Numbered from the stretch's first letter, positions 19,572 to 58,345 are shown. The stretch is 64,000 nucleotides of DNA from a virus (IMGVR_UViG_3300028048_000051:111843-175842); one strand, 5' to 3'. Program-made: numbers and translations. The notes: a model not told the origin generated them from the sequence alone.

Positions 19572-19861
19572 CTGAGTCGCAAAAACTTGCCGCATCTTTC
19601 GGTTTTACCACCAAGGGGTATCCGGCGCCTCCACAGGGAGTGCACAGTGTTCAGGATGCTTACTACAAAGCCGAGGATAAGCGTCCGGCAATCACAGAGG
19701 TGGATTCGAGTTGGCAACCTGCGCCTCCGCCTGCCGTAACCGGCAGTGCGAGTGAGGATCGCCAGGCGATCTTGGATCGGCTTTACGCCGAACGCGATCG
19801 GCTGTTGAAGTCTCTCGATGAAGTCAATGCTGAAATCTATCGGTTGCTCGGTCAGCAGTAA
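19568..19861 (+). CDS. hypothetical protein
   Basis: ORF with GGAG ribosome-binding site. Confidence 0.5.
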   Translation: MTESQKLAASFGFTTKGYPAPPQGVHSVQDAYYKAEDKRPAITEVDSSWQPAPPPAVTGSASEDRQAILDRLYAERDRLLKSLDEVNAEIYRLLGQQ

Positions 19862-19882
19862 TTTTATCCTTGGGTATAAAAA

Positions 19883-20116
19883 ATGAGCGGCGAGCAGTTG
19901 AGTAAACTGGCCGCGGCTGTATTGGCCGATGCCACCGGAGATAAACCGCAGGGCGTTCCGTTGTCTGGTGGATTGCGGGCGTGGTTTGAGTTCATCGACT
20001 ACCGCGAAAAGCCGAGGATGGCCGTCGCTGTGAAGAATGCGCATGGGGAGACGTTGTATCGGTATATTTCGAAGTCGTTCTACCGCATGTGCGCGTTGAA
20101 GAAAGTGCCGGCATAA
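19883..20116 (+). CDS. hypothetical protein
   Basis: ORF with ribosome-binding site. Confidence 0.5.
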   Translation: MSGEQLSKLAAAVLADATGDKPQGVPLSGGLRAWFEFIDYREKPRMAVAVKNAHGETLYRYISKSFYRMCALKKVPA

Positions 20117-20754
20117 TGTCCCGCCCGACGATGGCTATGCCGCCGGCTGTTTACAGCTGTGTGAAACGCGTAGGTGTGAAAGAATTTGCGCGTTCAGTCG
20201 GTATCAGCAAGAAAACACTGGAATCGGCAATGTGGCGGGGACGCATACTCCAATCATTATATCCCAGATACGAACTGGCGTTGCGGCTCTGTGCCGAAAG
20301 GATCCCGGAGCGGGATCGCTTTGCCGAATTCAGAGAAAAGCATCCGCGGATTGCCCGTCGTTTATTGGTTGCTGTTGGTGAAATGTTAGCAGTACAGCCG
20401 CAGAAAGTCAGTGAAATCGAATGTCATACACCTCTGTTGAGAGCATGGCGCGAATTCATGAACGCCCGGGCAAGAATGGAAAACATCTATGAGAACATAG
20501 GAATAAAAATGACGAAAATCCTGAAATTCACCACTCCCAGTTGTCCGCTGTGCAAGCAGCTGGGAAAAATGCTGGGTAAGCTGACTGACGTGCTGGTCGA
20601 GGAGCATAACGCTCTTGAATCGCCGTTGGCCGCCCAGTACAACATCACGACGGTTCCCACGTTGGTGATACTGCGCGATGGTAAAGAGATCGGCAGAACG
20701 GTTTCCATGACCGATCTTACAACGATTCGCGGAATCATCAACAAAAAGGACTGA
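20116..20754 (+). CDS. HTH-like N-terminal region fused in-frame to a thioredoxin/NrdH-like redoxin domain
   Basis: C-terminal MTKILKFTTPSCPLCKQLGKML has the CxxC thioredoxin-fold signature. The internal ATG at 20509 could give a stand-alone redoxin. TAATG overlap with the upstream gene. Confidence 0.55.
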   Translation: MSRPTMAMPPAVYSCVKRVGVKEFARSVGISKKTLESAMWRGRILQSLYPRYELALRLCAERIPERDRFAEFREKHPRIARRLLVAVGEMLAVQPQKVSEIECHTPLLRAWREFMNARARMENIYENIGIKMTKILKFTTPSCPLCKQLGKMLGKLTDVLVEEHNALESPLAAQYNITTVPTLVILRDGKEIGRTVSMTDLTTIRGIINKKD

Positions 20755-20758
20755 CAAG

Positions 20759-23700: not shown

Positions 23701-23815
23701 TGTGTGCCCGGAACACGGGTACATCAAGGGCGAGCATAAGCGGTGCCCGAAGTGTGTGGAGGTCGAAGTGTCCGGGGAAGAAATCATCAAACAAATGAAG
23801 GAAGAAGGAAAATGA
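20759..23815 (+). CDS. nrdD: anaerobic ribonucleoside-triphosphate reductase (class III) large fragment, intein-containing
   Basis: N-terminal ATP-cone (IVKRDGTTVPFNETKISTAIEKA). C-terminal CPEHGY...CPKC Zn-site half. The glycyl-radical motif is in the next overlapping ORF. Confidence 0.85.
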   Translation: MSLTQIVKRDGTTVPFNETKISTAIEKALASVGMKSDRLMKLVTRDVLTALKDHEGIPTVEQVQDIVERMLTKRGLYAAAKSFILYRAQHEKMRDGKELMMDISGLINAYRDQSDWRVHENANSGYSYSSLLKHVSSSVMAKYGLMELYPPEIARHHIDGDFHIHDLQCSIIPYCAGHSLRDLLLKGFKGTPDKNTAGPAKHLAPALQQAANFLATLQTEWAGAQAFSSFDTYMAPFVKVDKEYFAKRGFANWGYTEVKQALQMFLYVINVASRWGESPFTNITMDLVCPPDMKDQPVIIGGEYVDGLHYGDCQEEMNMLNKAFIELMMAGDYEGKPFSFPIPTYNITSEFDWESDLSRDLFALTGKYGIPYFQNFIGSDISPQDTRSMCPMDGDTPVWVKAGRGIHIRKIKDVYHQPGGYVEPFQTLLPDGSWVSARATRQEPTDVIEVELSNGDKKTLGVEHIQPIVNPDGKLVSIRAAEIENGMYIPYSLGGMDTGCVGSYDLGYVVGVYLGDGSTDEINRDGEKNIIFSLSASKVDKTGKPVAERIREFFQPMGFAVTVTPHEDSPLITVRATGPAFHVISRFIDGNDANDKSMTRYVFNMSSEFRQGVLDGIQDTDGCRVRRRIYTSSPALRDDLFNLCYSLGIKARKVYTDVRDNRISPNSKPVYRIDYTLRSGYGELYKELGGYSCVSVVSVKRVKNGKALYCFEVDTDEHLFVLPGGMVTHNCRLRIDLRELLRKTGALFGSGEKTGSIGVVTLNMPRLGYLHQGNEKTFFAALEQLMDDARDSLEIKRKVVERSLNSGLMPYSKEYIGSFDNHFSTIGLVGMNECCLNFMGVNIADPKGKDFAVRVLKFMRDRLSFYQEETKHLYNLEATPAEGTCYRLARADRKAYPDIITAGGDGEPYYTNSTHLPVGYTDDVFKALDHQEELQTIYTGGTVVHVFLGEGIQDPMQCMKLVKKIAETYKIPAFTITPTYSVCPEHGYIKGEHKRCPKCVEVEVSGEEIIKQMKEEGK
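21926..22948 (+). mobile_element. intein (341 aa) with LAGLIDADG homing endonuclease domain inside nrdD
   Basis: Begins CPMDGDTPVWV (block A) and ends VTHN followed by extein Cys (CRLRIDL). LAGLIDADG motifs LGYVVGVYLGDGS and FRQGVLDGIQDTDGC. Confidence 0.75.
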
Positions 23816-23973
23816 AAGAGAAAAAGGAATGCGGCCAGAAGACTGCGGTGTTCAGCCGAGTCAACGGGTACTACCGTCCGGTGGAAAACTGGAATAAGGG
23901 CAAGCAGTCCGAGTTCGCTGAGCGCAAGGAGTACGAGAACGGCAAGGAGTGCGCCTGCGCTACCGGGTGCTGA
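23812..23973 (+). CDS. nrdD: NrdD C-terminal glycyl-radical domain encoded as a separate 53-aa ORF (ATGA overlap, -1 frame relative to nrdD)
   Basis: MKEKKECGQKTAVFSRVNGYYRPVENWN... carries the RVxGY glycyl-radical motif plus Cys ligands (CG...CACATGC). Confidence 0.6.
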   Translation: MKEKKECGQKTAVFSRVNGYYRPVENWNKGKQSEFAERKEYENGKECACATGC

Positions 23974-23988
23974 GAGCCAGTAACACGC

Positions 23989-24028
23989 GAAGGCGGCGGG
24001 ATATAAAAGTCCCGCCGCCTTCTTTTTG
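23989..24028 (+). terminator. rho-independent terminator
   Basis: GAAGGCGGCGGGA / TCCCGCCGCCTTC 13-bp stem, 8-nt loop, then TTTTTG. Confidence 0.7.
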
Positions 24029-24033
24029 CGGTC

Positions 24034-24063
24034 TTGACAGAGCGCCCGATGGGAGGTTATATT
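24034..24063 (+). promoter_or_regulatory. sigma70-like promoter (TTGACA, 17-18 nt spacer, TATATT)
   Basis: Consensus -35 hexamer and a near-consensus -10 immediately upstream of the lipoprotein gene. Confidence 0.5.
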
Positions 24064-24090
24064 AGACCGTAGCTGAAAGAAACGGAGGAA

Positions 24091-24591
24091 ATGATGAAGA
24101 GTAGCATACTGTTGTGCGCGGCAGTGCTGTGCATGCTGTTTGTCGGATGCCGCAGCAAAGCCCCGGGGATATGTGATTATGATGATTGTCCGCTGATCGC
24201 GGTCACGGCCGACAGACATTATTGCACCATCCATTGTGCCGAGGATATGGAGAAGCGGAATGATAGCGACATGGCCCACCGGTGTGCGGTGGTCTGTCAG
24301 GTGTGCGGCGAGAAGCTCGACCCTCCGCAGTGGATCAGGGCAAGGATCGTGTACTGCAGAGGTTATGAGTTTCAGCCCTCGCAGTATAATTTCTACAACA
24401 TCCCTGTCTGCCCCAAGCACAGTAAGCACTGTATACGGAAATCGGTTTATCCGGTATTTATCGTGTTCGGGGGCAGAATCGAATATGTACTCGATAAAAT
24501 GCGACCATTCGATTTCAGCAATCTTGAAAGCGGTTCCGATGATCTGTTTGATCATTGTCGGAGGAAAAGAAGTCGTCAATACGAGGATTGA
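24091..24591 (+). CDS. predicted lipoprotein, Cys-rich (moron-like)
   Basis: MMKSSILLCAAVLCMLFVGC is a signal peptide with a lipobox-like FVGC. Flanked by its own promoter and a terminator. Confidence 0.55.
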   Translation: MMKSSILLCAAVLCMLFVGCRSKAPGICDYDDCPLIAVTADRHYCTIHCAEDMEKRNDSDMAHRCAVVCQVCGEKLDPPQWIRARIVYCRGYEFQPSQYNFYNIPVCPKHSKHCIRKSVYPVFIVFGGRIEYVLDKMRPFDFSNLESGSDDLFDHCRRKRSRQYED

Positions 24592-24688
24592 CCGTTCCAT
24601 CTGTGTGTGGCTGAGTGCCGATCTTCAAGGATAGACGCATTCTCTTATATGTATCAGTGCATTTTATTTTACGTAGGAGAAATGTGTT

Positions 24689-26137
24689 ATGGCCGCTGAA
24701 GCTTTGATGCCTAACGACCCGGCAGCCATTGTTCGTAAGGGGTTCGCCGATGTACCGGCACAACCATATAGTTATATTCTGGGCAGGTTGCTGCGGGATC
24801 CGGCGTACACCTTGGCAGCGTACATCAATCCCCAGAAAGCGTACAATGGCAGTCTTGTCGGAGTTCCTAATCCGAGAATGTCTACAAAAGGTACGGACTG
24901 GTATTATTGGCTTACGCAGGGCATCAATCCCCGGCATGTACGGGAGCAGAACGAAAGAGCCTGGGCGGAAATCAACAAGGATGCGGACACGCTGGGTATT
25001 CCGAAGGATCATATCGTCCGCGCCAATCTTCCAGTGGTGTACCCGTTAGATGGCAACGGTAATCCGGTTCCGTTGAGGCTTAAGACGGTGGATGACCGTA
25101 CCGGCCGGGCCGCGAGGCGTTTGCGGCGTGCAGGCAAGGATCCGGAGCCGGGAGTGTACGCCGGAGATTATTACGACTCGGGCAAGCGCGGATTCTCTCC
25201 GGAAGATGTGCTCCTTCCCTCGTGGCGACGCAAGTTCGTTCCCGGGACTCCCGAATACAACCGGATACTGATCGGCACGAACAATGCCAACAGGCCCTGG
25301 GATGAAACGCGCTCCTACTCCATACCGATGACCGGTTATGTGGATCTCGACCGCAGAGATGACCTCGGGACAGTCACCGAGGAGGTACTGCACAACTTCA
25401 ATCCGGCGCTCCACCACGGCGGCAGCGGTGCAATTCTGCGTTGGATGTTGTCCGGACATTACGACTCGCGGAATCGTACTGTACCGAAAATACCCGGTCT
25501 GACAGAGTTTGATATTCTGCCGATGTTTGATTCCCGCCAAAGCAGTGATGTTTACGTTAACAGACGTTATCGTTCCGGAGCCCACCCTACGCAGTTGGGT
25601 TACAATACGCCGGTACATACTATGGAAAATTCCGCTGGAGTTGCTGCTCTGGTACTGAATGAGATGGGAATGACTGGCAAAGAAGCTCCTGGAGGTTATG
25701 CTGCCTTGTTGAAGGGTATGATCGACCGTGGTGCATTATTGGAGGGTTTCGACGGTAAACTGTACGAAGTCCCCGGTGCCAAGAGGTTTTTCAACAACAA
25801 GTTCACCAACGAAAATACTGGCTGGAACGAGTTCATTGATAATGAGAACCGTTTCCGAGAAGCTGAGAATACAGTGAAAGCGCGCCTGCAGAAGGCCCGC
25901 AGTTATCTTACCGGTGGTTTCAAAACTGGTCTCAAGGCGGCGCCGTTGCGTACACTCGGCATGCCCTTTCAGAAGGCGCTGCAGGAGGCCAACAAGTATG
26001 GTTGGGCATACGAGGGTGCGCGCTATGCTCCCATGTACCGTACCAACATGGATAAAGCCGTGAGAACCGCACGCTTTGGTCCGGATCCCAGAGCAGTCGG
26101 AGCATATATTCCACCTCCCGCTGCCGATCCTAAGTAA
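24689..26137 (+). CDS. hypothetical protein (482 aa)
   Basis: Long ORF with ribosome-binding site; no recognisable motif. Confidence 0.6.
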   Translation: MAAEALMPNDPAAIVRKGFADVPAQPYSYILGRLLRDPAYTLAAYINPQKAYNGSLVGVPNPRMSTKGTDWYYWLTQGINPRHVREQNERAWAEINKDADTLGIPKDHIVRANLPVVYPLDGNGNPVPLRLKTVDDRTGRAARRLRRAGKDPEPGVYAGDYYDSGKRGFSPEDVLLPSWRRKFVPGTPEYNRILIGTNNANRPWDETRSYSIPMTGYVDLDRRDDLGTVTEEVLHNFNPALHHGGSGAILRWMLSGHYDSRNRTVPKIPGLTEFDILPMFDSRQSSDVYVNRRYRSGAHPTQLGYNTPVHTMENSAGVAALVLNEMGMTGKEAPGGYAALLKGMIDRGALLEGFDGKLYEVPGAKRFFNNKFTNENTGWNEFIDNENRFREAENTVKARLQKARSYLTGGFKTGLKAAPLRTLGMPFQKALQEANKYGWAYEGARYAPMYRTNMDKAVRTARFGPDPRAVGAYIPPPAADPK

Positions 26138-26160
26138 AGTCAAGTTCCCTACCCTTTTCA

Positions 26161-26191
26161 CCCACGGTAGTTAACTACCGTGGGTTTTATT
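26161..26191 (+). terminator. rho-independent terminator
   Basis: CCCACGGTAG / CTACCGTGGG 10-bp stem, TTAA loop, then TTTTATT. Confidence 0.6.
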
Positions 26192-26226
26192 GTATATACA
26201 CACATCAAAACCAAGGAGGAAAACCA

Positions 26227-27387
26227 ATGTACAAAATTGCAGAGAATGTCCTGTCATGGTGCAATGATCCGGAGTCCGGAGCGCAGTTTCAGGCGATGAA
26301 TATCTCTCGCCATCCGTGTCTCATTGGCAATGTGTGTCTCATGCCGGACACGCATGAAGGTTACGGCATGCCGATAGGCGGCGTGGCGGCATTTGAAAAT
26401 GCCGTCTGTCCCAACATGGTCGGCGTGGATATCGGCTGTGGGATGCTCGCGGTGAGGACATCCATCATCGAAAAACCCGGTCGTGAGGAGCTGTGTCGGG
26501 TCGTACAGAAGATACGAGCGTCCGTTCCTGTCGGGACTTCCCATCAGAGTACACCGCAGCCCGACGAATTGTTCGACGAGCCGATTTGGAGCAGTAACAG
26601 TGTTTGCGGGTTTGAGTGCGAAAATGCCAAGCGACAACTTGGTACGCTCGGCGGTGGCAATCACTTCATCGAGCTGCAGTGGGGTGATGATGGGCATATG
26701 TGGCTCATGATCCATTCCGGCTCACGTAATCTCGGTAAAAAAGTTGCCGATTATTACAACAACATCGCGGTAGAACTCTGCACCAGATGGCGGCAGATCG
26801 AGTGCGTCAGGGATCAACTGGCTTTCTTGCCTCGCGGCACCACGGAATATACTGATTACATGCGCGAGATGAACGCCTGCATACGTTTCGGTCAGGCCAA
26901 TCGTCGACATATTGCCGATGCCGTGATCCGCGCGATCAGTGAGGTATTCAGCAGCCAATGTCCTGATTTTGCCGATCCCATCAACATCAAGCACAACTAC
27001 GCCACTCTGGAACATCACTACGGCAAGGATGTCATGGTACACCGCAAGGGCGCTACGCTTGCCAGGAAAGGCGTCATCGGTATCATTCCCGGGTCACAGG
27101 GCAGCTGCTCGTATATCGTGGAGGGTCTGGGTAACGAGGCGTCGCTTTGTTCCTGTTCACACGGAGCCGGCCGCAGAATGTCGCGTTCGCGCGCACGCTC
27201 AGTGTTGAGTCTTGAGGACGAGGTTGCCAAGATGGATGCTTGCGGCATAGTGCATGGCATCAGCTGTGCCGATGACCTGGACGAGGCGCCGTCCGCGTAC
27301 AAGGACATAGACACTGTCATGCGGGAGCAGGCTGATCTGGTGAAGCCGTTGGTGCAGCTTAGCCCGTTGGCGGTCATCAAAGGATAG
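26227..27387 (+). CDS. rtcB: RtcB-family RNA ligase
   Basis: MPDTHEGYGMPIGGV, GGGNHFIE, HRKGAT and SCSHGAGR are RtcB active-site motifs. CAAGGAGGAAAACCA ribosome-binding site. Confidence 0.9.
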   Translation: MYKIAENVLSWCNDPESGAQFQAMNISRHPCLIGNVCLMPDTHEGYGMPIGGVAAFENAVCPNMVGVDIGCGMLAVRTSIIEKPGREELCRVVQKIRASVPVGTSHQSTPQPDELFDEPIWSSNSVCGFECENAKRQLGTLGGGNHFIELQWGDDGHMWLMIHSGSRNLGKKVADYYNNIAVELCTRWRQIECVRDQLAFLPRGTTEYTDYMREMNACIRFGQANRRHIADAVIRAISEVFSSQCPDFADPINIKHNYATLEHHYGKDVMVHRKGATLARKGVIGIIPGSQGSCSYIVEGLGNEASLCSCSHGAGRRMSRSRARSVLSLEDEVAKMDACGIVHGISCADDLDEAPSAYKDIDTVMREQADLVKPLVQLSPLAVIKG

Positions 27388-27395
27388 GAGGAATC

Positions 27396-28151
27396 ATGCA
27401 TCATTTCAGCGAAAACGACAATCTCATCGCTGGCATTACGCCCTTCACCACCATCGACTACCCGGGCGAGCTTGCAGCAGTGCTCTTCGTCCGCGGCTGT
27501 CCGTTGAGATGTCGATACTGTCACAATCCTTCGCTGCTCGGCACTGAGGGCGAGCACATGTCGGACAACTCGGTGTTCGAGTTTCTGGAGCAGCACAAAG
27601 GCAAGCTCTCAGGCATCGTGCTTTCCGGCGGCGATCCGCTGCTGGCGGCACGAAGGCAGCTTCCTGGCATCAATGAACTCATCGCCCATGCTCACGCCAT
27701 GGGCTACAAGGTCAAGTTCGACACCAACGGCGTGTGCTATACCGAGTATTTTAGCGAGGAGCCGTACAACCGTGGTAAGCAGCTGATAGCGTCGATGGAC
27801 TACATCGGGCTGGACATCAAGGCTCCGGTCGACAAGTACACCCTATTTCAGGGCAGCCCACAATGTTTCAAGAATGTGCAGGCCTTCATCGAGGACGTAC
27901 TCGAAAGCGGCGTCCCCATCGAGGTGCGCACCACCGTGCACAAATCACTGCTTGACGAGCGCGACCTCGTCCGGATCAAGGAGGAGATCATCGATCCTTA
28001 CGGCCTGGGAGATCGGTGGTGGCTGCAGCAGTTCCACGAGGGCGAGCTGTATGACAATTCAATCAATAAGGAACCGACGTATTCTGACATTGAACTTACC
28101 CGGATCGCTGGTGAACTGGGGTGTCGGATACGCGGAGTAAAGGAGGAATAA
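27396..28151 (+). CDS. nrdG: anaerobic ribonucleotide reductase activating protein (radical SAM)
   Basis: GCPLRCRYCHN is the CxxxCxxC radical-SAM cluster motif typical of NrdG/PflA-type activases. Confidence 0.8.
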   Translation: MHHFSENDNLIAGITPFTTIDYPGELAAVLFVRGCPLRCRYCHNPSLLGTEGEHMSDNSVFEFLEQHKGKLSGIVLSGGDPLLAARRQLPGINELIAHAHAMGYKVKFDTNGVCYTEYFSEEPYNRGKQLIASMDYIGLDIKAPVDKYTLFQGSPQCFKNVQAFIEDVLESGVPIEVRTTVHKSLLDERDLVRIKEEIIDPYGLGDRWWLQQFHEGELYDNSINKEPTYSDIELTRIAGELGCRIRGVKEE

Positions 28152-28153
28152 AG

Positions 28154-28597
28154 ATGGAGAAACAGAAACTCAAGTTCCATTGTTCGGAACCTAACCTTGA
28201 CCAGCTGGTCAAAGCGCATCCCACTGATGCCGGGTACGACCTGTGCTGTGCCGAACACACCGTGACCGTTCCGGCACGCGAGTGGGCGGTGATAGCTACC
28301 GGCGTGCGCCTGGCTATTCCGGAAGGCTACGTCGGCATTGTCAAGCCGCGTTCCGGTCTGGCGGCCAAACAAGGCATCGACGTAGGTGCCGGCGTCATCG
28401 ACTCCGGATATCGTGGAGAGGTCAAGGTGGTGCTTTTCAACCATTCCGATACGGATGTCCAATTCCAATACGGAGATCGTATCGCTCAGTTGGTGGTGCT
28501 CCAACTTTTCACCGGAGATTTGGAGAAAGTTGAATCCACGGATGATCTGCCGGAAGCCGATCGTGCGGAAAAGGGATTTGGAAGCAGTGGAGTATGA
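28154..28597 (+). CDS. dut: dUTP diphosphatase
   Basis: AGYDL, RSGLA, GVIDSGYRGEV, GDRIAQL and a C-terminal GFGSSG motif. Confidence 0.9.
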   Translation: MEKQKLKFHCSEPNLDQLVKAHPTDAGYDLCCAEHTVTVPAREWAVIATGVRLAIPEGYVGIVKPRSGLAAKQGIDVGAGVIDSGYRGEVKVVLFNHSDTDVQFQYGDRIAQLVVLQLFTGDLEKVESTDDLPEADRAEKGFGSSGV

Positions 28598-28668
28598 ATG
28601 ATGCAATACTTTTCGGAGTTTTGCTCGCAGTGTTTCTCGGATCACTGCGACTTTTCACGAGGTGAGCC

Positions 28669-29352
28669 ATGTACAGATTAGATACCATCAGTCCCGAGGC
28701 TGGACAGTATCTTCATTTGGTCGTGATGGATGTACATCCTTTATTCACTGATGATTTGAGCATAAAAAGGATATCTGTCAGTCCCGTGAATGGAAGAACA
28801 TATCGGGTTTATATCGGACTTTCCGATGGCAAAGACGAGGTGGTGACCATAGACAAACTGGTCCATTTTAACCGGAGAAATTTCAATAAAACTTCCTGTG
28901 TTCCAGTGTTTTCGAACATAACTTACGAAGAGACCTCTGACGGGTTTGACGATAATTTTCTCCATATCGAGTTGAGTGCGCCTGGAACTGGGGATACGCT
29001 GCTTGTTCGTATGCCCAGTTCCGATTTCCTTAGGCGGCGAGTGTGGTATGGAGGTACAAGTATCGGTATGTCTCCTTGGGAAATCAGATATTCAACGCCG
29101 CTGATGTTTCAACTGTCCGAGTTGCTCAACTCACCGGAACACTTCCGGAAGGTGCATCTACCCGGGTATTCCTCGGAGCAGGTAGCGCAACTGGTACACA
29201 AGATTCCGGAGACGATCGGTCGTTCCGATGGCTGTCTGGCGATATTGCGTAAGGCCAGAGTCAAACAACTGACACTGCAGGAACTTGCCCGTAAGTATCG
29301 TGTGGACAGCGACAAGCGTGAATTGGCCTCGTTTATCGATCCTGAGGATTGA
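28669..29352 (+). CDS. hypothetical protein (AT-rich gene)
   Basis: ORF with distinctly lower GC than its neighbours. Confidence 0.5.
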   Translation: MYRLDTISPEAGQYLHLVVMDVHPLFTDDLSIKRISVSPVNGRTYRVYIGLSDGKDEVVTIDKLVHFNRRNFNKTSCVPVFSNITYEETSDGFDDNFLHIELSAPGTGDTLLVRMPSSDFLRRRVWYGGTSIGMSPWEIRYSTPLMFQLSELLNSPEHFRKVHLPGYSSEQVAQLVHKIPETIGRSDGCLAILRKARVKQLTLQELARKYRVDSDKRELASFIDPED

Positions 29353-29370
29353 AAGGAGTTTATGTGAAAA

Positions 29371-29631
29371 ATGTTTGAAAAGTGGCTGTTGAAGTTGAAG
29401 GAAGGTTTGGAACTTCCGTGCCTGTTCGTCCCCCGGAGGACCTCTTTTGACGAGGTGCCGGATAAAGCGTATGCGTACCGTTATGAGGCGTCCACCAGCA
29501 TAATGACCGGAAAGGTGAATGCCATCCAACAGAAGGCATACTGCAACTACTGCGGAGATATTTGGCTGGCCAGACCTCTCCGAGTGGGTAAGTTCTCGTG
29601 GAGGGAAGTCGTCAGCATTCTTCCGCGGTAG
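29371..29631 (+). CDS. hypothetical small protein
   Basis: ORF with GGAG ribosome-binding site. Confidence 0.45.
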   Translation: MFEKWLLKLKEGLELPCLFVPRRTSFDEVPDKAYAYRYEASTSIMTGKVNAIQQKAYCNYCGDIWLARPLRVGKFSWREVVSILPR

Positions 29632-29660
29632 CTCCAAAGAAAAAGAAAATTCATTAACCC

Positions 29661-29696
29661 GGCGGGGTTGAGCGATCTGCTCCCCCGCCTTTTTTG
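29661..29696 (+). terminator. rho-independent terminator-like hairpin
   Basis: GGCGGGG / CCCCGCC stem followed by TTTTTTG. Confidence 0.55.
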
Positions 29697-29723
29697 TGTC
29701 CATTTACAAGGAGTATTGTAAAA

Positions 29724-30314
29724 ATGTTCAGAAAGAAATCCGTATCCGCATCCGTTTCCTCGGCGTCTATCGTTCACCCCGGCGTCTCCAAGTCCGATTT
29801 GCCCAGTCGCACCACCGTCTCCGTTACCCGAGAGTCGAAGCGGCTGCGTACAGAGCACTTGCGTTATATCCGGCGTGAGGCGGCAGCGGCGAAGGCGCAG
29901 AAACTTCAAGACTTCCGTGCGAAGACCGAGGCCGCACTTCAGGTGTTCGACGACACCGCCGTGATGGTGCGTTTCGCGGATATCCTCTCGTCTCGCGGAG
30001 GGGCCTACATCCAGAAGCAGCTGATTGACCTAATCATCGGGCGTCTCCGTGACGGACGTACCTCGGCCAAGCACAATGTCATCGGGATCGATCTGTCGAA
30101 GATCCCTGAATTCATTGCCCTGAGGAGTAATTTCCAGAAGTCCAGGGATGCATTGAACGAGGCCTACGAGGCCGGAGTTCAGAAGATCGAGCAGTCCATC
30201 TCGGATGTCGTCGACGGTGTGTATCTCGACAGCATGCCGGACGAGTGTGCTGAAAAGGTGCGGCTGCTCCGGGAACTGCCGATACCGGGACTTCCGCAGC
30301 CGGCAGTGGTGTAA
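29724..30314 (+). CDS. hypothetical protein
   Basis: ORF 29694..30314; ATG preceded by AAGGAG. Confidence 0.5.
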   Translation: MFRKKSVSASVSSASIVHPGVSKSDLPSRTTVSVTRESKRLRTEHLRYIRREAAAAKAQKLQDFRAKTEAALQVFDDTAVMVRFADILSSRGGAYIQKQLIDLIIGRLRDGRTSAKHNVIGIDLSKIPEFIALRSNFQKSRDALNEAYEAGVQKIEQSISDVVDGVYLDSMPDECAEKVRLLRELPIPGLPQPAVV

Positions 30315-30365
30315 TGTACAGTAAAGCGGTGGGGACACTGTGTCCCCACCGTACGTCTGGAGGTA

Positions 30366-30623
30366 ATGATGGTAGACGAGGAAAAAGGCGAACTTCATAT
30401 CATCTGGGATGTGAATGATATCCGAAATTACGCCACCATGTGCTTGGAGCCGGAGACGTGTCAGGAACTGTCGCACGAGGACGCGCTGAATATTCTGCAC
30501 GAGCTTGATCGCGAGCACGACAGCAGTCGAGGCATCACCTGGAAGGTGGTGGAGTCGAAGATACGTGAGTATCTGAGGAACAAGGAAACCGAATTGCAGA
30601 GGGCGGTGAATTATGGCAGCTGA
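30366..30623 (+). CDS. hypothetical small protein
   Basis: ORF with GGAGG ribosome-binding site. Confidence 0.45.
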   Translation: MMVDEEKGELHIIWDVNDIRNYATMCLEPETCQELSHEDALNILHELDREHDSSRGITWKVVESKIREYLRNKETELQRAVNYGS

Positions 30624-30792
30624 GTTCGAGTTAAATGGCAAACAGTATACGACGAAAGAGCATTTCGCGCGCACTTGCGCAGGCTGTGTCTTTGCACATG
30701 GAGATCATTCGGAATGCGCCGAAGCACAGAATGTATCCGGTAAGTCTTGTGGTTTGGATCACGTAGTTTTTATCGAGGTTAAACATGAATGA
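30613..30792 (+). CDS. small Cys/His protein (59 aa)
   Basis: Not in the track; MAAEFELNGKQYTTKEHFARTCAGCVFAHGDHSECAEAQ...; overlaps its neighbours. Confidence 0.3.
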   Translation: MAAEFELNGKQYTTKEHFARTCAGCVFAHGDHSECAEAQNVSGKSCGLDHVVFIEVKHE

Positions 30793-31033
30793 AGACGAAT
30801 ATCTGAAAGCACTGCTGCAGCGCAATCCGGGATTGAACAAAGGCGACGACGATACTGTCACGCTGAGAGTCCGCGGACTGAAGGCCATTATCCGTCAGGC
30901 TTTCCAGAAGGGACGGGAATCGGCGTTGGGTGATCAGAAAAATTACAGTGCCGCAGGTGACGGCAGCAGCGGTTCCGCGCTGTTCGATAAACTTTTTGGA
31001 GGAAACCGAAATGGACAAAGCAGCTTCTTTTGA
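30785..31033 (+). CDS. hypothetical small protein
   Basis: ORF with ATG. Confidence 0.4.
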   Translation: MNEDEYLKALLQRNPGLNKGDDDTVTLRVRGLKAIIRQAFQKGRESALGDQKNYSAAGDGSSGSALFDKLFGGNRNGQSSFF

Positions 31034-31463
31034 TCAGAAAAAGGCAGATGATCCGGTAAATCACCCCGGTCATTATTGTGTTGGAAATCTGGAATGCATT
31101 GAGGTGATGCGCAGTATCCACGGCGATTTCGCGGTGGGTTGTTTTGCCCGCTGTAACGCCTGGAAGTACTTGTGGCGCACCAACCGGAAAAACGGCAAGC
31201 AGGACATTGAGAAAGCCTTGTGGTACTTGACCAAGTACAATAATGAGCTTTCCAACAGTACCGATGAGGTTAAAGCCGCCATTCGTGTTCTGACATCTTG
31301 TGCCATAAAAGTCGGCGTGCGCAGGTCTTCCGGGTGCGGTACGGAATCCGCGGAAATGGAACTTTGCAAGGCATTCAGGAGACTGCATGATCTCCTCGGT
31401 TTGAGCAGCGACTGGAATCCTGTGAGCGGCACGCTGCCCAGTATATTGGGGGAGGACAAGTAA
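31011..31463 (+). CDS. DUF3310-like phage protein
   Basis: NHPGHYCVGNLECIEV...NAWKYLWR...KALWYL matches the DUF3310 pattern HY..g.iE.id.....NaiKYl.R....KA.wYl. Confidence 0.5.
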   Translation: MDKAASFDQKKADDPVNHPGHYCVGNLECIEVMRSIHGDFAVGCFARCNAWKYLWRTNRKNGKQDIEKALWYLTKYNNELSNSTDEVKAAIRVLTSCAIKVGVRRSSGCGTESAEMELCKAFRRLHDLLGLSSDWNPVSGTLPSILGEDK

Positions 31464-31799
31464 ATGATGCAGAAGGCATGCATAAAGACTCCCAATGGCA
31501 CTGCGGTGGCCATAAGCGTTGATCTGCACAAGGTGTTTTCTGATGACTTCAAGGCCATCGTCAGAACGACGTTGGTGGGTAACCTGCTCAAGGAATTCGC
31601 CGCGGCCAAGTGCAATCCCGAAGACACCAGTCACAAGGGAGAAGCCTTCCGCAACACGGTATGCGACATTGCGGAATATACCGCGGCGGCAATCCAGCCT
31701 ATGATCAATGAACTCATGGAGGAAATACGTCATGGCGATGTTCTCGATCAGGAGCTGGCGGATATGGGCATCACCTTCGCCGATGATAAGGAGAAGTAG
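31464..31799 (+). CDS. hypothetical protein
   Basis: ORF; its ATGATG follows the upstream stop. Confidence 0.5.
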   Translation: MMQKACIKTPNGTAVAISVDLHKVFSDDFKAIVRTTLVGNLLKEFAAAKCNPEDTSHKGEAFRNTVCDIAEYTAAAIQPMINELMEEIRHGDVLDQELADMGITFADDKEK

Positions 31800-31801
31800 C
31801 A

Positions 31802-32197
31802 ATGGGATTGATGATAGGTAAGACTGGAGCAAATCCTACGATTCCGATTTGTCCATACTGCGGCAAAGGAAAGAACGAGGTAATACTTACCGGATTGGCC
31901 GGTGAGAAGTGGGCCAAAGAAAACGGACGTCCAGACGGCCAGATGCCGATGTATGTGCAGATCGAGGGTGATGTTGAACCTTGCGCTGAATGCAAAAAGA
32001 AGGGCATTGCGATAGTAGAGATGGCTCCGGACACCCGGAAACCCACCGGTAAACGGTGGCTGGTGACCAGGGATTACATCAAGCGTACGGTGAAACAACC
32101 GCTGCAGGATCAGATTCTTAAAAAAGGTATCGCCTTCATTGATCCCGAGACCGCCGAGTCGGTGGGATTGCATGCAGCACTAGAACAGGAGGGTTAA
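31802..32197 (+). CDS. hypothetical Zn-ribbon protein (CPYCG...CAEC)
   Basis: ORF with two CxxC pairs. Confidence 0.5.
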   Translation: MGLMIGKTGANPTIPICPYCGKGKNEVILTGLAGEKWAKENGRPDGQMPMYVQIEGDVEPCAECKKKGIAIVEMAPDTRKPTGKRWLVTRDYIKRTVKQPLQDQILKKGIAFIDPETAESVGLHAALEQEG

Positions 32198-32199
32198 AC

Positions 32200-32508
32200 A
32201 TGAGCTGGGGTACTTATTACAAACACAAGGGTTATCTGTCTCATATTTGTGAGAATGAGTTAGATAACAAATACGATGAGTGTAAACAGATCAATGATAT
32301 GATCTGGCGTGAGATACTCTCGTATATGGCTTCGACGCCTCCCGCTACGGCGAAGGACTTCGAAGGTAATGAGTACCCCTGGCCCGAGTTTATCGCAAAT
32401 AAGGTGCGGGAGTTTCGTGAAACCATTGAGGAGAACAATCACTTGATGACACGAATTAACGACTGCATTGAAGCTCGTGAAGACAATCCTGAAAACGTAT
32501 GGTCGTAG
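32200..32508 (+). CDS. hypothetical protein
   Basis: ORF. Confidence 0.5.
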   Translation: MSWGTYYKHKGYLSHICENELDNKYDECKQINDMIWREILSYMASTPPATAKDFEGNEYPWPEFIANKVREFRETIEENNHLMTRINDCIEAREDNPENVWS

Positions 32509-32515
32509 GTGTATT

Positions 32516-32689
32516 ATGGATTTTGTGTTTTTCTATTTGATCGTGACTGCGTGGACATGGCTCGGCAGACAGTATATGCTGACATCTGAAGATGACCGTC
32601 GCGATTATTTTCGTAACGGCTTTGCCGAGTTCATCAGATGTCTTGGCTGGCCGTTGATGTTGATTAACCACAAGGAGAAAACTAAATGA
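32516..32689 (+). CDS. small hydrophobic protein
   Basis: Internal ATG of ORF 32468..32689; MDFVFFYLIVTAWTWL... Confidence 0.35.
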   Translation: MDFVFFYLIVTAWTWLGRQYMLTSEDDRRDYFRNGFAEFIRCLGWPLMLINHKEKTK

Positions 32690-33753
32690 GGAAGTTGGCA
32701 AGCATCAGAACGATAGAGTCTCTCAGTCCTATCGAGGGCGCGGATAAGATCGAGTTGGCTCATACCGGTGGATGGCAATGTGTGGTCGGCAAGGACCAGT
32801 TCAAACCTGGTGAAGCTGCTGTGTTTTTCGAGATCGACAGTGCTTTGGCTCCAAATGATGAGCGTTATGCTTTCTTGAAGCCGACATGTCTTAAGGAATG
32901 GCGGAACAAGGACGGACAGCTCGTTGATTCCTGTATACGGATTCGTACCATGCGGTTCCGTGGTCAGATCTCGCAGGGGTTGTTTATGCCCATTCACGAT
33001 TTTCCAGAGATTGTGGATAGGACTGAGGGAATTGACCTTACTGAAGTACTGCATGTACGGCATTTCGACCTGATCAAGGAGCAGGCCGATACCATTCTCG
33101 GCAAGGTAAAGCTCGCTGGAGACATCTATGGTAGTTTCCCATCGGCATTGGTCCCGAAGACCGATGAGGAAAGACTGCAGAATCTGATGGACTATTTCGA
33201 GACCAGGAAAGATGTAGCCTTTGAATGTACTGAGAAGTTCGACGGATGCAGCGTTACCTTTGGGTACTCCACCACGTTGGAGGATCCATTCTTTGTCTGT
33301 GGCAGAAACAACCGTCTCAAGGACACGGGAGAGAATCTCTACTGGCGAATGGCGAGAAAGTACGATCTGCAGCATCTTCTGGAGCAGTGCTCCAAGATGG
33401 GAACTGACCTGGCCATCCAAGCCGAGATAGTCGGTCCCGGAGTCAACGGCAATCGGGATCAATACACCGAGCATGAGATACGGGTATTTCGTATCTACGA
33501 CATGCAGAAGCAGCAGTGGTTGACTCCTGAAGCGCGTCATGCATTTTGTGAACGCCATAAACTGCCGCATGTCAAGATCGTCCGTGATAACTGGGAGGTG
33601 TTCAAGGAGTTCACATCGTTGGATGACTTCCTGAGGTTCGTTGAGGGCAAAACCGATCGGGGGCATGAGCGGGAGGGCATGGTGTGGAAATCTCTAAATG
33701 GTCGTACCAGCTTCAAGGTCATCAACAATAATTACTTGCTGAAGGAGAAGTGA
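32686..33753 (+). CDS. ATP-dependent polynucleotide ligase of the covalent nucleotidyltransferase superfamily, RNA-ligase-like
   Basis: TEKFDGCS (motif I KxDG lacking the Arg typical of DNA ligases) and EGMVWK (motif V). Confidence 0.6.
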   Translation: MRKLASIRTIESLSPIEGADKIELAHTGGWQCVVGKDQFKPGEAAVFFEIDSALAPNDERYAFLKPTCLKEWRNKDGQLVDSCIRIRTMRFRGQISQGLFMPIHDFPEIVDRTEGIDLTEVLHVRHFDLIKEQADTILGKVKLAGDIYGSFPSALVPKTDEERLQNLMDYFETRKDVAFECTEKFDGCSVTFGYSTTLEDPFFVCGRNNRLKDTGENLYWRMARKYDLQHLLEQCSKMGTDLAIQAEIVGPGVNGNRDQYTEHEIRVFRIYDMQKQQWLTPEARHAFCERHKLPHVKIVRDNWEVFKEFTSLDDFLRFVEGKTDRGHEREGMVWKSLNGRTSFKVINNNYLLKEK

Positions 33754-33754
33754 A

Positions 33755-34141
33755 GTGGTTACCGAAAGCATGATTTATTGGATATTCCGCCTAGATTATA
33801 TCCGTGCATTTTGTATCGGAGTTGCGGTAGTATCCAGTGTTGCTGCTGTTTTGTTGCCGTTTGCTGCGATGGATATCAACAGTGACGATGACCTTGCAAA
33901 GCGATGGAAACGGCGTCTGTTTCGATTGTCGGCATTGTGCGCGGTGTTGTTTATCTCGGCCGTACAAGGATCAATATTCATACCCACCACACAAGAGATG
34001 ATCTTAATCAAGGTGATTCCTGTCATCAGCAATTCCAAGTTCATGACCGAACAATTGCCTGGTGAAATGAAGGAATTTTACGACCTCGGCAGAAAGGCGC
34101 TCATCAGTAATTTGAAAGGTGCGGTCGATGGACAAAAATGA
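33755..34141 (+). CDS. small membrane protein, paralogue of 35029..35427
   Basis: GTG start. MxYWIxRxDxIR... and FxPTTxExxxIxVxPxIxNS... are shared with the paralogue. Confidence 0.5.
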   Translation: MVTESMIYWIFRLDYIRAFCIGVAVVSSVAAVLLPFAAMDINSDDDLAKRWKRRLFRLSALCAVLFISAVQGSIFIPTTQEMILIKVIPVISNSKFMTEQLPGEMKEFYDLGRKALISNLKGAVDGQK

Positions 34142-34526
34142 ACTTGTAAAAACTTGCGTGGCCTGTGGTAAGTGTCAGGGATACGAACTGTTCGCCTCGC
34201 AGGGTGTTCCCGATGGACTGGATTGCGAAACCGCCCGAAAATGGGCGGAGTCCGGGACGTTGCGGAACAACGTGCGGAGCAATGTCGAAGCCGACGGCAA
34301 GTTGTATCATGTGTACTACGGAGCCAAATTCAACGGTACTCAGCAGGAATTCGTCCTCGATGTTCGGGCGAGTAGTGCCAGGGAGGCCTGTGCAGAATGT
34401 AAACGACTGGTGTTCAAGAACACTGGACGTAACGCATTTACACCGCAGGCGGTGCTTTCTGACAAAAGACCCAAATGGTACTCCGAAGCTAAAGTGCGTA
34501 AGGGGTATCCTCCTCCGAAGATGTGA
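34128..34526 (+). CDS. hypothetical Cys-containing protein
   Basis: ATG inside track ORF 34119..34526. Confidence 0.45.
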   Translation: MDKNELVKTCVACGKCQGYELFASQGVPDGLDCETARKWAESGTLRNNVRSNVEADGKLYHVYYGAKFNGTQQEFVLDVRASSAREACAECKRLVFKNTGRNAFTPQAVLSDKRPKWYSEAKVRKGYPPPKM

Positions 34527-35032: not shown

Positions 35033-35427
35033 TTACGACAACACAGATGTATTGGATCACACGTGCCGATGCGATACGGCATGGCCTCGTGGGGATAATG
35101 ATACCAATCATTCTTCTATTTGTGCTGGCTTCGGTGGGTAAGATAGTTACGTTGATCGAGCAGACGGTCAGCGGTGACGAATCACCGTTGGCCAGAACTA
35201 TGACGCGACTTTGGGTCGGGTTCTCCGCGGCACTTATACTGGTGATTGGCGCGGAGATGTTCACACCCACTACCAAGGAACTGGCGGCGATCATCGTTGT
35301 GCCGAAGATCGCCAACTCCACGCTGGTGACGGAGAAGATCCCGCAGGAGCTTAGCGAGTTGTACACGCTCGCCAAGCAGTATATGATCGAAAGTCTGAAG
35401 GAAAAGAAAAAGGAGGCAGAGAAGTGA
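35029..35427 (+). CDS. small membrane protein, paralogue of 33755..34141
   Basis: GTG start; pattern shared with its paralogue. Confidence 0.5.
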   Translation: MITTTQMYWITRADAIRHGLVGIMIPIILLFVLASVGKIVTLIEQTVSGDESPLARTMTRLWVGFSAALILVIGAEMFTPTTKELAAIIVVPKIANSTLVTEKIPQELSELYTLAKQYMIESLKEKKKEAEK

Positions 35428-36278
35428 AAATCGTAATGCCCAGCGTGGAAATCATTCCGCGCATGGACCCCATCAAGAAGATAGAACTGTGCGCCCGTGT
35501 GGCGTACAAGTCCGAGGACAAAATCACCGAGGATTCCGCAGAACGCTTCGTCAAGCGCCTGATCGAGCGGGGGCATACGAGTGTGTTGGAACATGCGAGA
35601 GTACTGGCTCCCGAGACAGCCCTCAGTTACTGCCCACCGGATGCAGAACGGCCGTATGGATGGCGTGATCGAGTGAAATGGTTCAGTAGCAAGGAGTATG
35701 GCGCCCAATACCACGTAACTTGGTGGCGTACTTTGAATGCGCGTGATTTCATTGCGCTAGGCGGAACCCTCGAGCAACTCAAAACGCTCGAAGAAGCCGA
35801 TGACTACATGTCGGTGCGATTCACCTGCGACCGTGCCATTGCCAACGAACTGGTGCGCCACAGACAACTAAGTTTTACTCAGTCATCAACACGCTATATC
35901 AACTACAGAGAGGGCGTGGAGTTCGTGCTACCAGTGCCGTTCGGCTGGACGGCGTATTCCGAAGTGGTCACCGACCTTCGTCCGGCCTCCGAGGATCCGC
36001 TGTATGCCGAGTGGAAACAGGCGTGCTCATATGCCGAGCGTGCGTACATCCAGATGATCCGTCATGGCGCCACCCCGCAGGAAGCGCGCGACGTGCTACC
36101 ATTGTCTACCAAGACCGAGCTTATCATGACCGGCATGTACAAGCAGTGGGAGGACGTCTTCAAGCTGCGACTCGACAAGGCCGCCCATCCGCAGATGCGG
36201 TACCTGATGAAACTGCTGGTCAACCTGCCGGAGTTCCCGAAGGATAAGATCCACGTGGAGGACAAGACCGATGACTGA
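35424..36278 (+). CDS. thyX: flavin-dependent thymidylate synthase
   Basis: VRHRQLSFTQSSTRY is the ThyX motif RHRxxSxxxxSxR. GTG start 7 nt after AAGGAGG. Confidence 0.85.
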   Translation: MKIVMPSVEIIPRMDPIKKIELCARVAYKSEDKITEDSAERFVKRLIERGHTSVLEHARVLAPETALSYCPPDAERPYGWRDRVKWFSSKEYGAQYHVTWWRTLNARDFIALGGTLEQLKTLEEADDYMSVRFTCDRAIANELVRHRQLSFTQSSTRYINYREGVEFVLPVPFGWTAYSEVVTDLRPASEDPLYAEWKQACSYAERAYIQMIRHGATPQEARDVLPLSTKTELIMTGMYKQWEDVFKLRLDKAAHPQMRYLMKLLVNLPEFPKDKIHVEDKTDD

Positions 36279-52211: not shown

Positions 52212-52482
52212 CTATGTCTACATGGTCCGCAGTGCTTGGTATGACGAGTACCATGTGTTCGGCATATACACCACCGCGGAAGCCGCACGTGAGGTCTTGA
52301 GAAAATATCTTGACGAACGTACCATGATTGGATTACACACCTATAAATGGCGAGACGATAATACCGTTGATGAGTATGCTCGCATTGACCACATTACTGA
52401 GGATGTGTATTGCAATGAGTACAAAATAATCAAAGTACCGCTCAATCAGTGGACAGAAAAACCCGAGGCATGGAGAGCATGA
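52204..52482 (+). CDS. hypothetical small protein
   Basis: ORF with GGAGGAGG ribosome-binding site. Confidence 0.45.
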   Translation: MDNYVYMVRSAWYDEYHVFGIYTTAEAAREVLRKYLDERTMIGLHTYKWRDDNTVDEYARIDHITEDVYCNEYKIIKVPLNQWTEKPEAWRA

Positions 52483-53342: not shown

Positions 53343-53801
53343 ATGAGTAAGTACGTGTTTTACTTTAGGTGTTCATTTACCCAAGATCCTGAGGATTTGC
53401 GCATCGACGTGGTGGACGATCTTGTTAGAGAGTCTACTGGCAACGGTATTGTCACAAAGGGCGGCAGGTATGTGATTACCAGTCATGGAGGAGTATATCC
53501 TACGTTGAAGGCAATGAAAAATGCCATCAAGCAAGGATATAGGCACGGCAGTGACATCCACGTATGTGATGATGCCGGCACGTTGATGAGGCATCACTGG
53601 TTTGGCTTCTGCTATGACTCAGAAGATGATTCGGAAGATGTCGCTGTTACAAGAGCACGTGTGGCCGATATCTGTACCGCGGCATACCTTGACATGCTGA
53701 AACACCAACGCGAGGTCATTGATGATATGACGGTCAAAGTGAAGGATGCTGTAGCTATGGTAAGAAGGGGAGAGATTCCAAGGAGTGTTATCAATGAATA
53801 G
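53343..53801 (+). CDS. paralogue family C distant member
   Basis: KYVFYFRCSF...FGFCYDSEDDSEDVAVTRARV. Confidence 0.45.
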   Translation: MSKYVFYFRCSFTQDPEDLRIDVVDDLVRESTGNGIVTKGGRYVITSHGGVYPTLKAMKNAIKQGYRHGSDIHVCDDAGTLMRHHWFGFCYDSEDDSEDVAVTRARVADICTAAYLDMLKHQREVIDDMTVKVKDAVAMVRRGEIPRSVINE

Positions 53802-54300
53802 ACCTACCATTTATGCCATCGACTTCGATGGTACCATCGTGAGGGATGCCTGGCCAGGTATTGGTGATCCTATTCCAGAGGTATGTAATCTCATCCTGAA
53901 CATCCAGAAACGCGGGGACAAATGGATCTTGTACACCATGCGCGAAGGAGAGTTGCTGGATAAGGCTCTGAAGGAGTGCGAAAGGATAGGTCTGAAGCCG
54001 GATGCGGTCAACGACAACATCAAATCCATGCAGGAGTTGTTTGGCAATAATCCGCGGAAGATATATGCCGATGTATATATCGACGACCACAACGCCGGTG
54101 GGCTGCGACTGGACAACCAAGAATCGTCGAAAAGTACAACACCTTTTTGCGATGATTGTCGGTATCGGCTTCCCATATGGCCGAATGACATTTGCGTTTA
54201 CGGTAATATGAGTCGTTCCTGCAAAATTCTTCGAGACACAAAAGATCTTTGTGGTCCGGAGGGTAAATGGTTTGATCCTAACAAGGTGGTACCTGTGTAG
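53794..54300 (+). CDS. HAD-superfamily phosphatase-like protein
   Basis: IYAIDFDGTIV is HAD motif I (DxDGT). Confidence 0.5.
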   Translation: MNRPTIYAIDFDGTIVRDAWPGIGDPIPEVCNLILNIQKRGDKWILYTMREGELLDKALKECERIGLKPDAVNDNIKSMQELFGNNPRKIYADVYIDDHNAGGLRLDNQESSKSTTPFCDDCRYRLPIWPNDICVYGNMSRSCKILRDTKDLCGPEGKWFDPNKVVPV

Positions 54301-58211: not shown

Positions 58212-58345
58212 GGTACTTCCTCCTACTGTATGGCTATGACGCTGATAAAGTATACTACTTAAAGTTGATAATTTCAAGTCGAAAACGACTTAATTTCAAA
58301 GGTTTTTTCGGCATAATATAATGGAACGAAAGTTCCAAAAGTAAA

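Follow-up and report, generated by a model that had tools for sequence, protein, structure and literature searches.

In phage T4, Pnkp and Rnl1 act against the anticodon nuclease PrrC, and RNA cut by a host RNase is rejoined by a phage enzyme. Several ligase types may also be carried in one large genome. Combinations of RtcB, Rnl1 and Rnl2 were described in jumbo phages and were interpreted as directed, without redundancy, at distinct RNases (Iyer et al., 2021, PMC7824862). That phages in general use RNA ligases to counter host RNases is an established idea, and the gene pair reported below is already annotated in cultured phages. In this study we analyzed a stretch of viral DNA of 64,000 nt (IMGVR_UViG_3300028048_000051:111843-175842; hereafter the window) from a ~176-kb phage genome, in which a gene for RtcB (26227..27387) is found together with a gene for an ATP-dependent ligase of the Rnl5 class (32686..33753), and we report the integrity, family, catalytic residues, arrangement and distribution of these genes. 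Our reading, to which we give a probability of roughly 0.6, is that this phage carries two independent RNA ligases of complementary end chemistry and not one pathway, that the slot between nrdD and nrdG is exchangeable and holds RtcB as an accessory gene, and that a HAD phosphatase encoded further downstream is an unrelated enzyme of the small-molecule type.

The two families differ in the RNA ends they require. RtcB joins a 3'-P or 2',3'-cyclic-P to a 5'-OH, as summarised in PMC4408790. Rnl5 was defined in the same work by an N-terminal OB-like domain followed by a nucleotidyltransferase (NTase) domain with no C-terminal appendage; it seals 3'-OH(RNA)/5'-PO4 nicks in duplexes and is feeble on single-stranded RNA, and its physiological substrates are unknown for the whole family (PMC4408790). 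The enzymes of loop repair are Rnl1 and Rnl4, not nick sealers, and phage homologues of the Rnl5 enzyme DraRnl were already noted in 2015 (PMC4408790). Compared with T4, neither Pnkp (in the about 84 kb searched) nor Rnl1 was found here; the RtcB would work in one step without healing and the ATP-dependent ligase is predicted to be a nick sealer. Compared with the jumbo phages, where the ATP-dependent partners were Rnl1 and Rnl2, the partner here is Rnl5, and the kinases, 2H or HAD phosphoesterases and RlaP that generally accompany ATP-dependent ligases (PMC7824862) were not found with it in the region searched.

The isolated Microbacterium phage Cece (OP068343.1; about 186 kb) carries, like the window, an Rnl5-like gene (gp153, 'RNA ligase') and an annotated 'RtcB-like RNA ligase' (gp161), with ThyX and tRNA-Lys(CTT) genes nearby. 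However, the sequences are distant (33.6% identity between the Rnl5-like ligases over 99% of the length), the two ligase genes are 2.3 kb apart in Cece and 5.3 kb here, and the single tRNA of the window contrasts with a very large tRNA array in Cece, which also encodes a peptidyl-tRNA hydrolase and infects an actinobacterium. The window phage is a divergent example of a phage in which a predicted nick sealer for 3'-OH/5'-P ends accompanies a predicted direct ligase for 3'-P/5'-OH ends. The new points are modest: identity of <=40% to any isolated phage protein, the position of RtcB between nrdD and nrdG, and RtcB being exchangeable while Rnl5 is retained.

The RtcB and Rnl5-class ligase genes

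The RtcB gene (26227..27387, + strand) encodes 386 aa and was assigned by Pfam, PHROG and PDB alignment as a predicted GTP/Mn-dependent 3'-P (or 2',3'-cyclic-P)/5'-OH RNA ligase. Its open reading frame (ORF) follows an AAGGAGG Shine-Dalgarno sequence, and strong AGGAGG-type ribosome-binding sites preceded every gene checked, namely RtcB, the Rnl5 ligase, nrdG and the HAD gene. The protein matched PF01139 at E 1.5e-104 (351 bits, cut-off 27) and PHROG 1075, 'tRNA splicing ligase', at E 6e-115. The catalytic set D41, H43, D68, C71, N145, H146, H163, H256 and H312 was present, and all nine residues were invariant in 29 family members. Structure alignment equated D68, C71, N145, H146, H163, H256 and H312 with D95, C98, N202, H203, H234, H329 and H404 of Pyrococcus horikoshii RtcB, and the Thermus protein agreed; in P. 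horikoshii these are the metal ligands and the GMP-accepting His. Three of the motifs are readily recognized: DIGCG with D68 and C71, GGGNHF with N145 and H146, and SHGAGR with H312. The gene, which a preliminary description of this locus had placed here, is complete, with every metal-binding and GMP-accepting residue in place, and none of the catalytic His or Cys residues was missing.

The window RtcB shares the metal ligands and the His-GMP site with the RtcB proteins of E. coli, P. horikoshii and T. thermophilus (PDB 1uc2/4dwq, 2epg). It differs from them in its compact 386-aa form, in lacking RtcA, RtcR, PrfH and archease genes nearby, and in its scores, which fell below the NCBIfam cut-offs of both the E. 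coli-type equivalog NF007153 (182.5 bits vs 407) and the PrfH-linked RtcB2 equivalog TIGR03073 (151 bits vs 271.8). Judged from its sequence, it is a member of a separate, phage-rich RtcB branch. By homology, the enzyme would be guanylylated on H312; a 2',3'-cyclic phosphate would be opened first, GMP would be transferred to the RNA 3'-phosphate, and the 5'-OH would then attack. RtcB alone could in this way reseal, without healing, RNA that was cut by RNases acting without metal, among them anticodon nucleases, HEPN and colicin-like enzymes and toxin RNases. Its likeliest use would be to restore tRNA or other translation RNAs that are cut during infection, and we infer that counter-defence is the most likely role of RtcB, in line with the interpretation given for other phages (PMC7824862).

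The second ligase (32686..33753, + strand, 355 aa) is a predicted ATP-dependent RNA ligase of the Rnl5 clade, as indicated by Pfam, TIGR02306, PHROG and PDB 5cot. An N-terminal OB domain (PF21189, residues 4-103, E 3.9e-28) is followed by an RNA_ligase NTase domain (PF09414, residues 179-346, E 6.8e-25), and the chain stops 11 residues past motif V, so that there is no C-terminal module. PHROG 968, 'RNA ligase', was matched at E 7e-72. TIGR02306 (RNA_lig_DRB0094) was covered from 2 to 341 of 341 with 145.3 bits, which is 6 bits under its trusted cut-off of 151.15. The protein aligned end to end with NgrRnl of Naegleria gruberi (PDB 5cot, E 8.5e-63), which favours its membership in the Rnl5 family. 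In NgrRnl, Arg4, Arg149, Lys170, Asp172, Glu227, Glu312 and Lys326 contact ATP and two metals, K170, E227, E312 and K326 are essential, and so are R149 and D172 (PMC7261155). The equivalents in the window ligase are R2, R163, K184, D186, E247, E330 and K344, respectively, and further equivalents are R207 (Arg190) and F268 (Phe248). All nine key residues were invariant in 38 relatives. The sole differing position is the dispensable Lys121 of NgrRnl, which was aligned to Arg125/His126. The architecture is thus that of NgrRnl and DraRnl, and the nine residues are those of NgrRnl; in contrast to these cellular proteins the window ligase is viral, it misses the TIGR02306 cut-off, and its activity is a prediction.

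Motif I reads K184-F-D186-G-C-S, without Arg at +5, as had been claimed when the enzyme was first called RNA-ligase-like, and classification with hidden Markov models agreed with that claim by placing it in the Rnl5 clade. An ATP-dependent DNA ligase was considered and rejected: the motif is KFDGCS and not KxDGxR, the OB domain is N-terminal, and no DNA-ligase Pfam domain was found at E <= 0.01. From these sequence features, the enzyme at 32686-33753 is of the Rnl5 class. By homology it would be adenylylated on the putative site K184 and would seal 3'-OH(RNA)/5'-PO4 nicks held in a duplex. Here it could act on nicks left in structured RNA by metal-dependent nucleases, or on RNA-ended nicks in DNA. 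Further KxDG matches in the window (10330-11412, 20759-23815, 52449-52901 and 60546-61088) were regarded as chance occurrences; the Pfam survey assigned these ORFs to other families or to none, and to no ligase family.

Since the end requirements of RtcB and Rnl5 are opposite, the two ligases would be complementary and not redundant. The preliminary description had proposed redundant repair routes, and this proposal did not hold, as the end chemistries differ, Rnl5 is poor on single strands, and it is not of the loop-sealing type. The wider idea that these phage ligases counter host RNases agrees with the accepted view (PMC7824862), with the reservation that Rnl5 does not belong with the loop sealers Rnl1 and Rnl4. 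Among cultured phages the two genes also have largely different host distributions: RtcB was mostly found in Mycobacterium, Bacillus and Listeria phages, and Rnl5-like genes mostly in Pseudomonas and Aeromonas phages.

The segment between nrdD and nrdG

The ORFs of RtcB, the Rnl5 ligase and the HAD phosphatase were confirmed, all on the + strand, which is covered nearly completely with ORFs over the window. The gene order is nrdD (20759-23815, +), a 53-aa ORF for the tail of NrdD, ORF166, ORF482, RtcB, nrdG (27396..28151, +) and dut, followed by ten small ORFs including a DUF3310 gene, then Rnl5, more small ORFs and thyX (35424-36278, +). RtcB and Rnl5 are separated by 5.3 kb and 13 called genes, and the HAD gene lies ~20 kb beyond the Rnl5 ligase. 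NrdG, the activase of anaerobic ribonucleotide reductase, was identified with TIGR02495 (148.7 bits, cut-off 131.15); its gene starts 9 nt past RtcB and is a marker of the genomic setting, not an RNA-repair gene.

Over 21 kb the window is identical to a metagenomic contig of 175.8 kb. No close relative of the window was found among 50,697 phage records, and the only DNA similarity to INPHARED phages was a 36-nt patch in RtcB, so that the window phage has no close isolates. The closest relative with DNA available was a 167-kb contig (L005), whose ligase is 68% identical and whose NrdG is 93% identical to those of the window. Collinearity between L005 and the window extends over 19780-24132 and resumes over 27386-34388. 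However, the 3.25 kb between these blocks (24133-27385, + strand; from the nrdD tail to nrdG, as defined by blastn, blastp and gene calls), which hold most of ORF166, the orphan ORF482 and RtcB, were replaced in L005 by 1.7 kb of unrelated small ORFs, and no homologue of RtcB or ORF482 was found there between nrdD and nrdG. The right-hand break coincides exactly with the stop codon of RtcB, about 10 nt ahead of the ATG of nrdG. Because collinearity holds on both sides of a replaced segment, the slot is probably exchangeable, with RtcB as an accessory gene in it. Elsewhere, RtcB genes of other relatives were surrounded by unrelated small ORFs. Rnl5 was kept in each of the three relatives examined, which measure about 167-186 kb (53-68% identity), and one relative of 184 kb had both RtcB and Rnl5, 21 kb apart. 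That RtcB is exchanged while Rnl5 is retained in one phage family of ~165-185 kb offers a modest lead on the in vivo function of Rnl5.

Within the variable segment, ORF166 and the 482-aa ORF482 (24091-26137) form a unit of their own between a putative promoter and a putative terminator. Three elements on the + strand, each a pattern match only, delimit it. A strong terminator-like hairpin with a 14-bp stem and a T tail is found at 23989-24022, a near-consensus sigma-70-type promoter match (TTGACA-18-TATATT) ahead of ORF166 at 24034-24063, and a second terminator-like hairpin between ORF482 and RtcB at 26160..26185; the last would divide the ORF166/ORF482 unit from RtcB-nrdG-dut. ORF482 had no Pfam or PHROG match. 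It matched itself alone among 5.8 billion proteins and had one weak relative (E 9e-8) among 1.8 billion representatives, and its AlphaFold single-sequence model had a pLDDT of 33. As a gene directly upstream of RtcB and co-inserted with it, ORF482 was considered as a repair partner and was rejected, having no family match and no link to RNA repair.

Healing enzymes, neighbours and the alternative readings

A T4-like route through the Rnl5 ligase would need end healing, and the search for such enzymes covered about 84 kb of the ~176-kb genome, i.e. the window and ~10 kb on each side. No strict Walker A motif was found in any + strand ORF of the window; of four relaxed matches in six frames, three were off-frame and one was upstream of the start codon of a small ORF. 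PNK, 2H/LigT, RlaP, archease, Tpt1 and CCA-adding enzymes were not detected by Pfam in the 118 + strand ORFs of the window, and the genes called in the flanks gave no match to a kinase family of Pfam; one flank carries helicases, a split PolA and a Rad50-like gene, the other an integrase and ORFs without Pfam match. The earlier remark that no kinase P-loop partner is present was thus borne out, and no polynucleotide kinase was found in the region searched. Because no kinase-phosphatase healing enzyme was found, the same break would be out of reach for one or the other ligase.

We further surveyed IMG/VR for gene neighbourhoods, using alignment-based queries and a distance of 10 kb, which gave 80 Rnl5 loci and 80 RtcB loci (160 in total); single-protein locus queries had returned only 1 and 0 loci. 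RtcB was <=10 kb from Rnl5 in 2/80 Rnl5 loci and Rnl5 was <=10 kb from RtcB in 4/80 RtcB loci, and a HAD of the BT0820 type occurred in 1/80 loci of each set. After clustering of ~4,500 neighbour ORFs, no partner family exceeded 16/160 loci. The commonest neighbours were RecA, ResIII helicase, RlaP, ThyA, ATP-dependent DNA ligase and metallophosphoesterase, as well as SNF2 helicase, PolA, dUTPase, Macro-domain protein, DnaB and SPFH protein. Neither ligase has a conserved partner across these loci.

The alternative that survived best, unlikely as we judge it, concerns the Rnl5 ligase, which might serve the replication or repair of phage DNA and not RNA repair, by sealing RNA-ended nicks in DNA such as those at ribonucleotide patches left by gap filling. 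The neighbourhood of the gene fits such a role: Rnl5 lies between nrdD/nrdG/dut and thyX here and near RecA-like, helicase, RuvC and rIIB genes in relatives, and the commonest neighbours of IMG/VR Rnl5 loci were helicase, ThyA, RecA, DNA ligase, dUTPase and DNA polymerase. Furthermore, repair of DNA with RNA patches was proposed for Rnl5 (PMC4408790), and loss of DraRnl makes Deinococcus radiodurans sensitive to ionising radiation (PMC5397189). It is this neighbourhood of replication and nucleotide metabolism, together with the radiation sensitivity of the rnl mutant, that keeps the DNA option for Rnl5 alive. However, early gene clusters of phages mix replication genes with counter-defence genes, so that a neighbourhood is weak evidence, RlaP and Macro domains with links to RNA repair also recur near Rnl5, and no replication partner is conserved, the top neighbour family reaching <=16/160 loci. 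A more specific form of this view, in which Rnl5 is a retained replication/repair enzyme of the nrdD-nrdG-dut-thyX block that acts on RNA-ended nicks of phage DNA and RtcB is a separately acquired counter-defence gene, is distinctly improbable as a whole; if true, a role in vivo would for the first time be defined for the Rnl5 family, and in a viral system that is tractable.

The reading of the preliminary description, an integrated heal-and-seal toolkit in which RtcB, the KxDG ligase and the HAD phosphatase redundantly repair the breaks of anticodon nucleases, appears slightly less probable still. In its favour, none of the three genes is missing or damaged, a tRNA-Lys gene is also present, the 184-kb relative has a BT0820-like HAD 7.5 kb upstream of its RtcB, and the phosphatase domain of T4 Pnkp is likewise a DxDxT enzyme (PMC3592404). 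However, a 5' kinase would be needed to reconcile the end chemistries, and the search of about 84 kb revealed none; Rnl5 seals duplex nicks and not loops (PMC4408790); and the closest collinear relative has no RtcB at the equivalent position. Neither a 5'-kinase/3'-phosphatase accompanying the ligase in this region nor co-location or co-conservation of the genes, by which heal-and-seal systems are recognized, was observed. What stands of the toolkit is therefore that the genes are real and intact. A linked module does not follow, as 13 genes and 5.3 kb separate the two ligases, the slot occupied by RtcB is variable, and co-location in IMG/VR is rare (2/80, 4/80, 1/80 and 1/80).

The HAD phosphatase showed no connection with the ligases. 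Its gene (53794..54300, + strand) encodes, as predicted from motifs, NF046079 and PDB 2obb, a capless HAD phosphatase of the BT0820 type with a Cys-rich C-terminal tail. The motifs are DFDGT ... YIDD, with DFDGT at residues 10-14 from the ATG at 53794, a start that suits the AAGGAG sequence better than the GTG at 53785. The score against the BT0820 family NF046079 was 85.1 bits (cut-off 165) and was confined to the N-terminal ~100 residues, and PDB 2obb was matched over the first ~107 residues at E 2e-17. BT0820 itself (PDB 2obb, from Bacteroides thetaiotaomicron) comes from structural genomics. It shares the DxDGT ... DD core over ~100 residues; it differs in that the window protein has an extra tail of ~60 aa, rich in Cys, for which no match was found, and scores below the NCBIfam cut-off, and the function of BT0820 is uncharacterised. 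In the single-sequence search of the PDB, 2obb was the only match at E <= 1. A profile built from the window protein and four relatives found 2obb (7e-26) and 1xpj (2e-6), while in this profile search of the PDB Pnkp1 (4xrp) appeared at E 0.086 among generic HADs and T4 Pnkp was absent. The AlphaFold single-sequence model had a pLDDT of 35. A Pnkp-like polynucleotide 3'-phosphatase was therefore rejected on both the sequence and the profile searches, and there is no adjacent kinase. The HAD gene claimed for this position is present, whereas a part in a ligase toolkit finds no support in an enzyme that lies 20 kb away, resembles BT0820, lacks significant similarity to the Pnkp phosphatase and is rarely near ligases; it is probably an unrelated phosphatase of the small-molecule type.

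That RtcB processes RNAs of the phage itself (the tRNA-Lys, a minihelix at 60296-60375 that resembles transfer-messenger RNA (tmRNA), or products of introns or RNases) is very improbable: the window does have a tRNA-Lys(CUU) gene, the adjacent 80-nt tmRNA-like element and a gene for a MYG1-type exonuclease just upstream, and RtcB is the tRNA-splicing ligase of archaea and metazoa (PMC12135372), but neither RNA gene has an intron or split that needs ligation, both are 33 kb from RtcB, and RtcB is found in hundreds of phages in very different contexts.

Some points weigh against two independent ligases with RtcB in an exchangeable slot. The enzymatic activities are those expected from homologues, and the counter-defence role derives from the literature. 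L005 was examined over 12 kb, and RtcB may sit elsewhere in its genome. A Pnkp-type healing enzyme could lie in the other ~90 kb of the window phage genome and would connect both routes. Finally, the Pfam survey of the window covered the + strand ORFs; one minus-strand gene, a sigma factor, is known.

Other features of the window

The nrdD gene contains an in-frame intein of 341 aa (21926-22948), with a Cys after RSM at its start, THN then Cys at its end, and the LAGLIDADG-like blocks VYLGDGS and LDGIQDTDG. L005 nrdD is without this intein and has a mini-intein of ~160 aa at a different site of the gene. The 53-aa ORF that follows (23812-23973) overlaps the nrdD stop codon (ATGA), and it is here that the glycyl-radical motif SRVNGYY, usually at the end of NrdD, is encoded; the split is also found in L005 and may represent a genuinely split NrdD or a programmed frameshift. 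The gene for the family A DNA polymerase is interrupted as well, by a group I intron (Rfam RF00028, 52 bits; 110-373) that contains a homing-endonuclease ORF (203-1081, PHROG 314). The ORF at 1130-1945 is the C-terminal piece of PolA, and a GIY-YIG endonuclease occupies the corresponding place in a related contig.

A reverse transcriptase is encoded at 9543-10499 (RVT_1, E 7.6e-20). No other large ORF has a YADD box, and the counterpart of this gene in related contigs also has an RVT_1 match. A diversity-generating retroelement was considered and rejected, as no template/variable repeat of at least 40 nt was found in 5-20 kb. Directly downstream of it lie three genes, one E2-like (10330-11412, a weak match), one of the JAB type (11680-12747) and one ThyF/ThiF E1-like (12711-13640), which by sequence resemble a ubiquitin-like conjugation set.

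The tRNA-Lys(CUU) gene is at 60389-60462. The 80-nt element next to it (60296-60375) matched the tmRNA model of Rfam at its two ends (RF00023; 52 bits, E 1e-17) and was not called by ARAGORN. The acceptor stem contains G3:U70, a T arm is present and CCA is encoded, and 18 nt replace ~312 of tmRNA, so that a tRNA-like domain without the tag-coding part is left. The element could be a decoy for SmpB or alanyl-tRNA synthetase, a remnant, or part of an attachment site. A 32-mer from its 3' half had no exact match in 185,579 species genomes; a 23-mer occurred in many Alphaproteobacteria and in a few Clostridia-type metagenome-assembled genomes and is not diagnostic of the host. Directly upstream of both RNA genes, 59264-60283 encodes a MYG1/UPF0160 protein (DHH-type exonuclease family, Pfam E 1.7e-28), which may be an RNA-processing gene.

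The sigma factor at 57354-58277 (- strand; sigma-70 family, with Sigma70_r2/r3 matches in the corresponding gene of the source contig) was the one minus-strand gene that stood out clearly. About 0.1 kb past the right end of the window is a gene for a tyrosine integrase, a hint that this ~176-kb phage may be temperate. An SPFH/Band 7 protein is encoded at 55562-56764 with 77% identity to that of the 184-kb relative, and the SPFH family recurs near phage RNA ligases, in 7 of the 160 IMG/VR loci.

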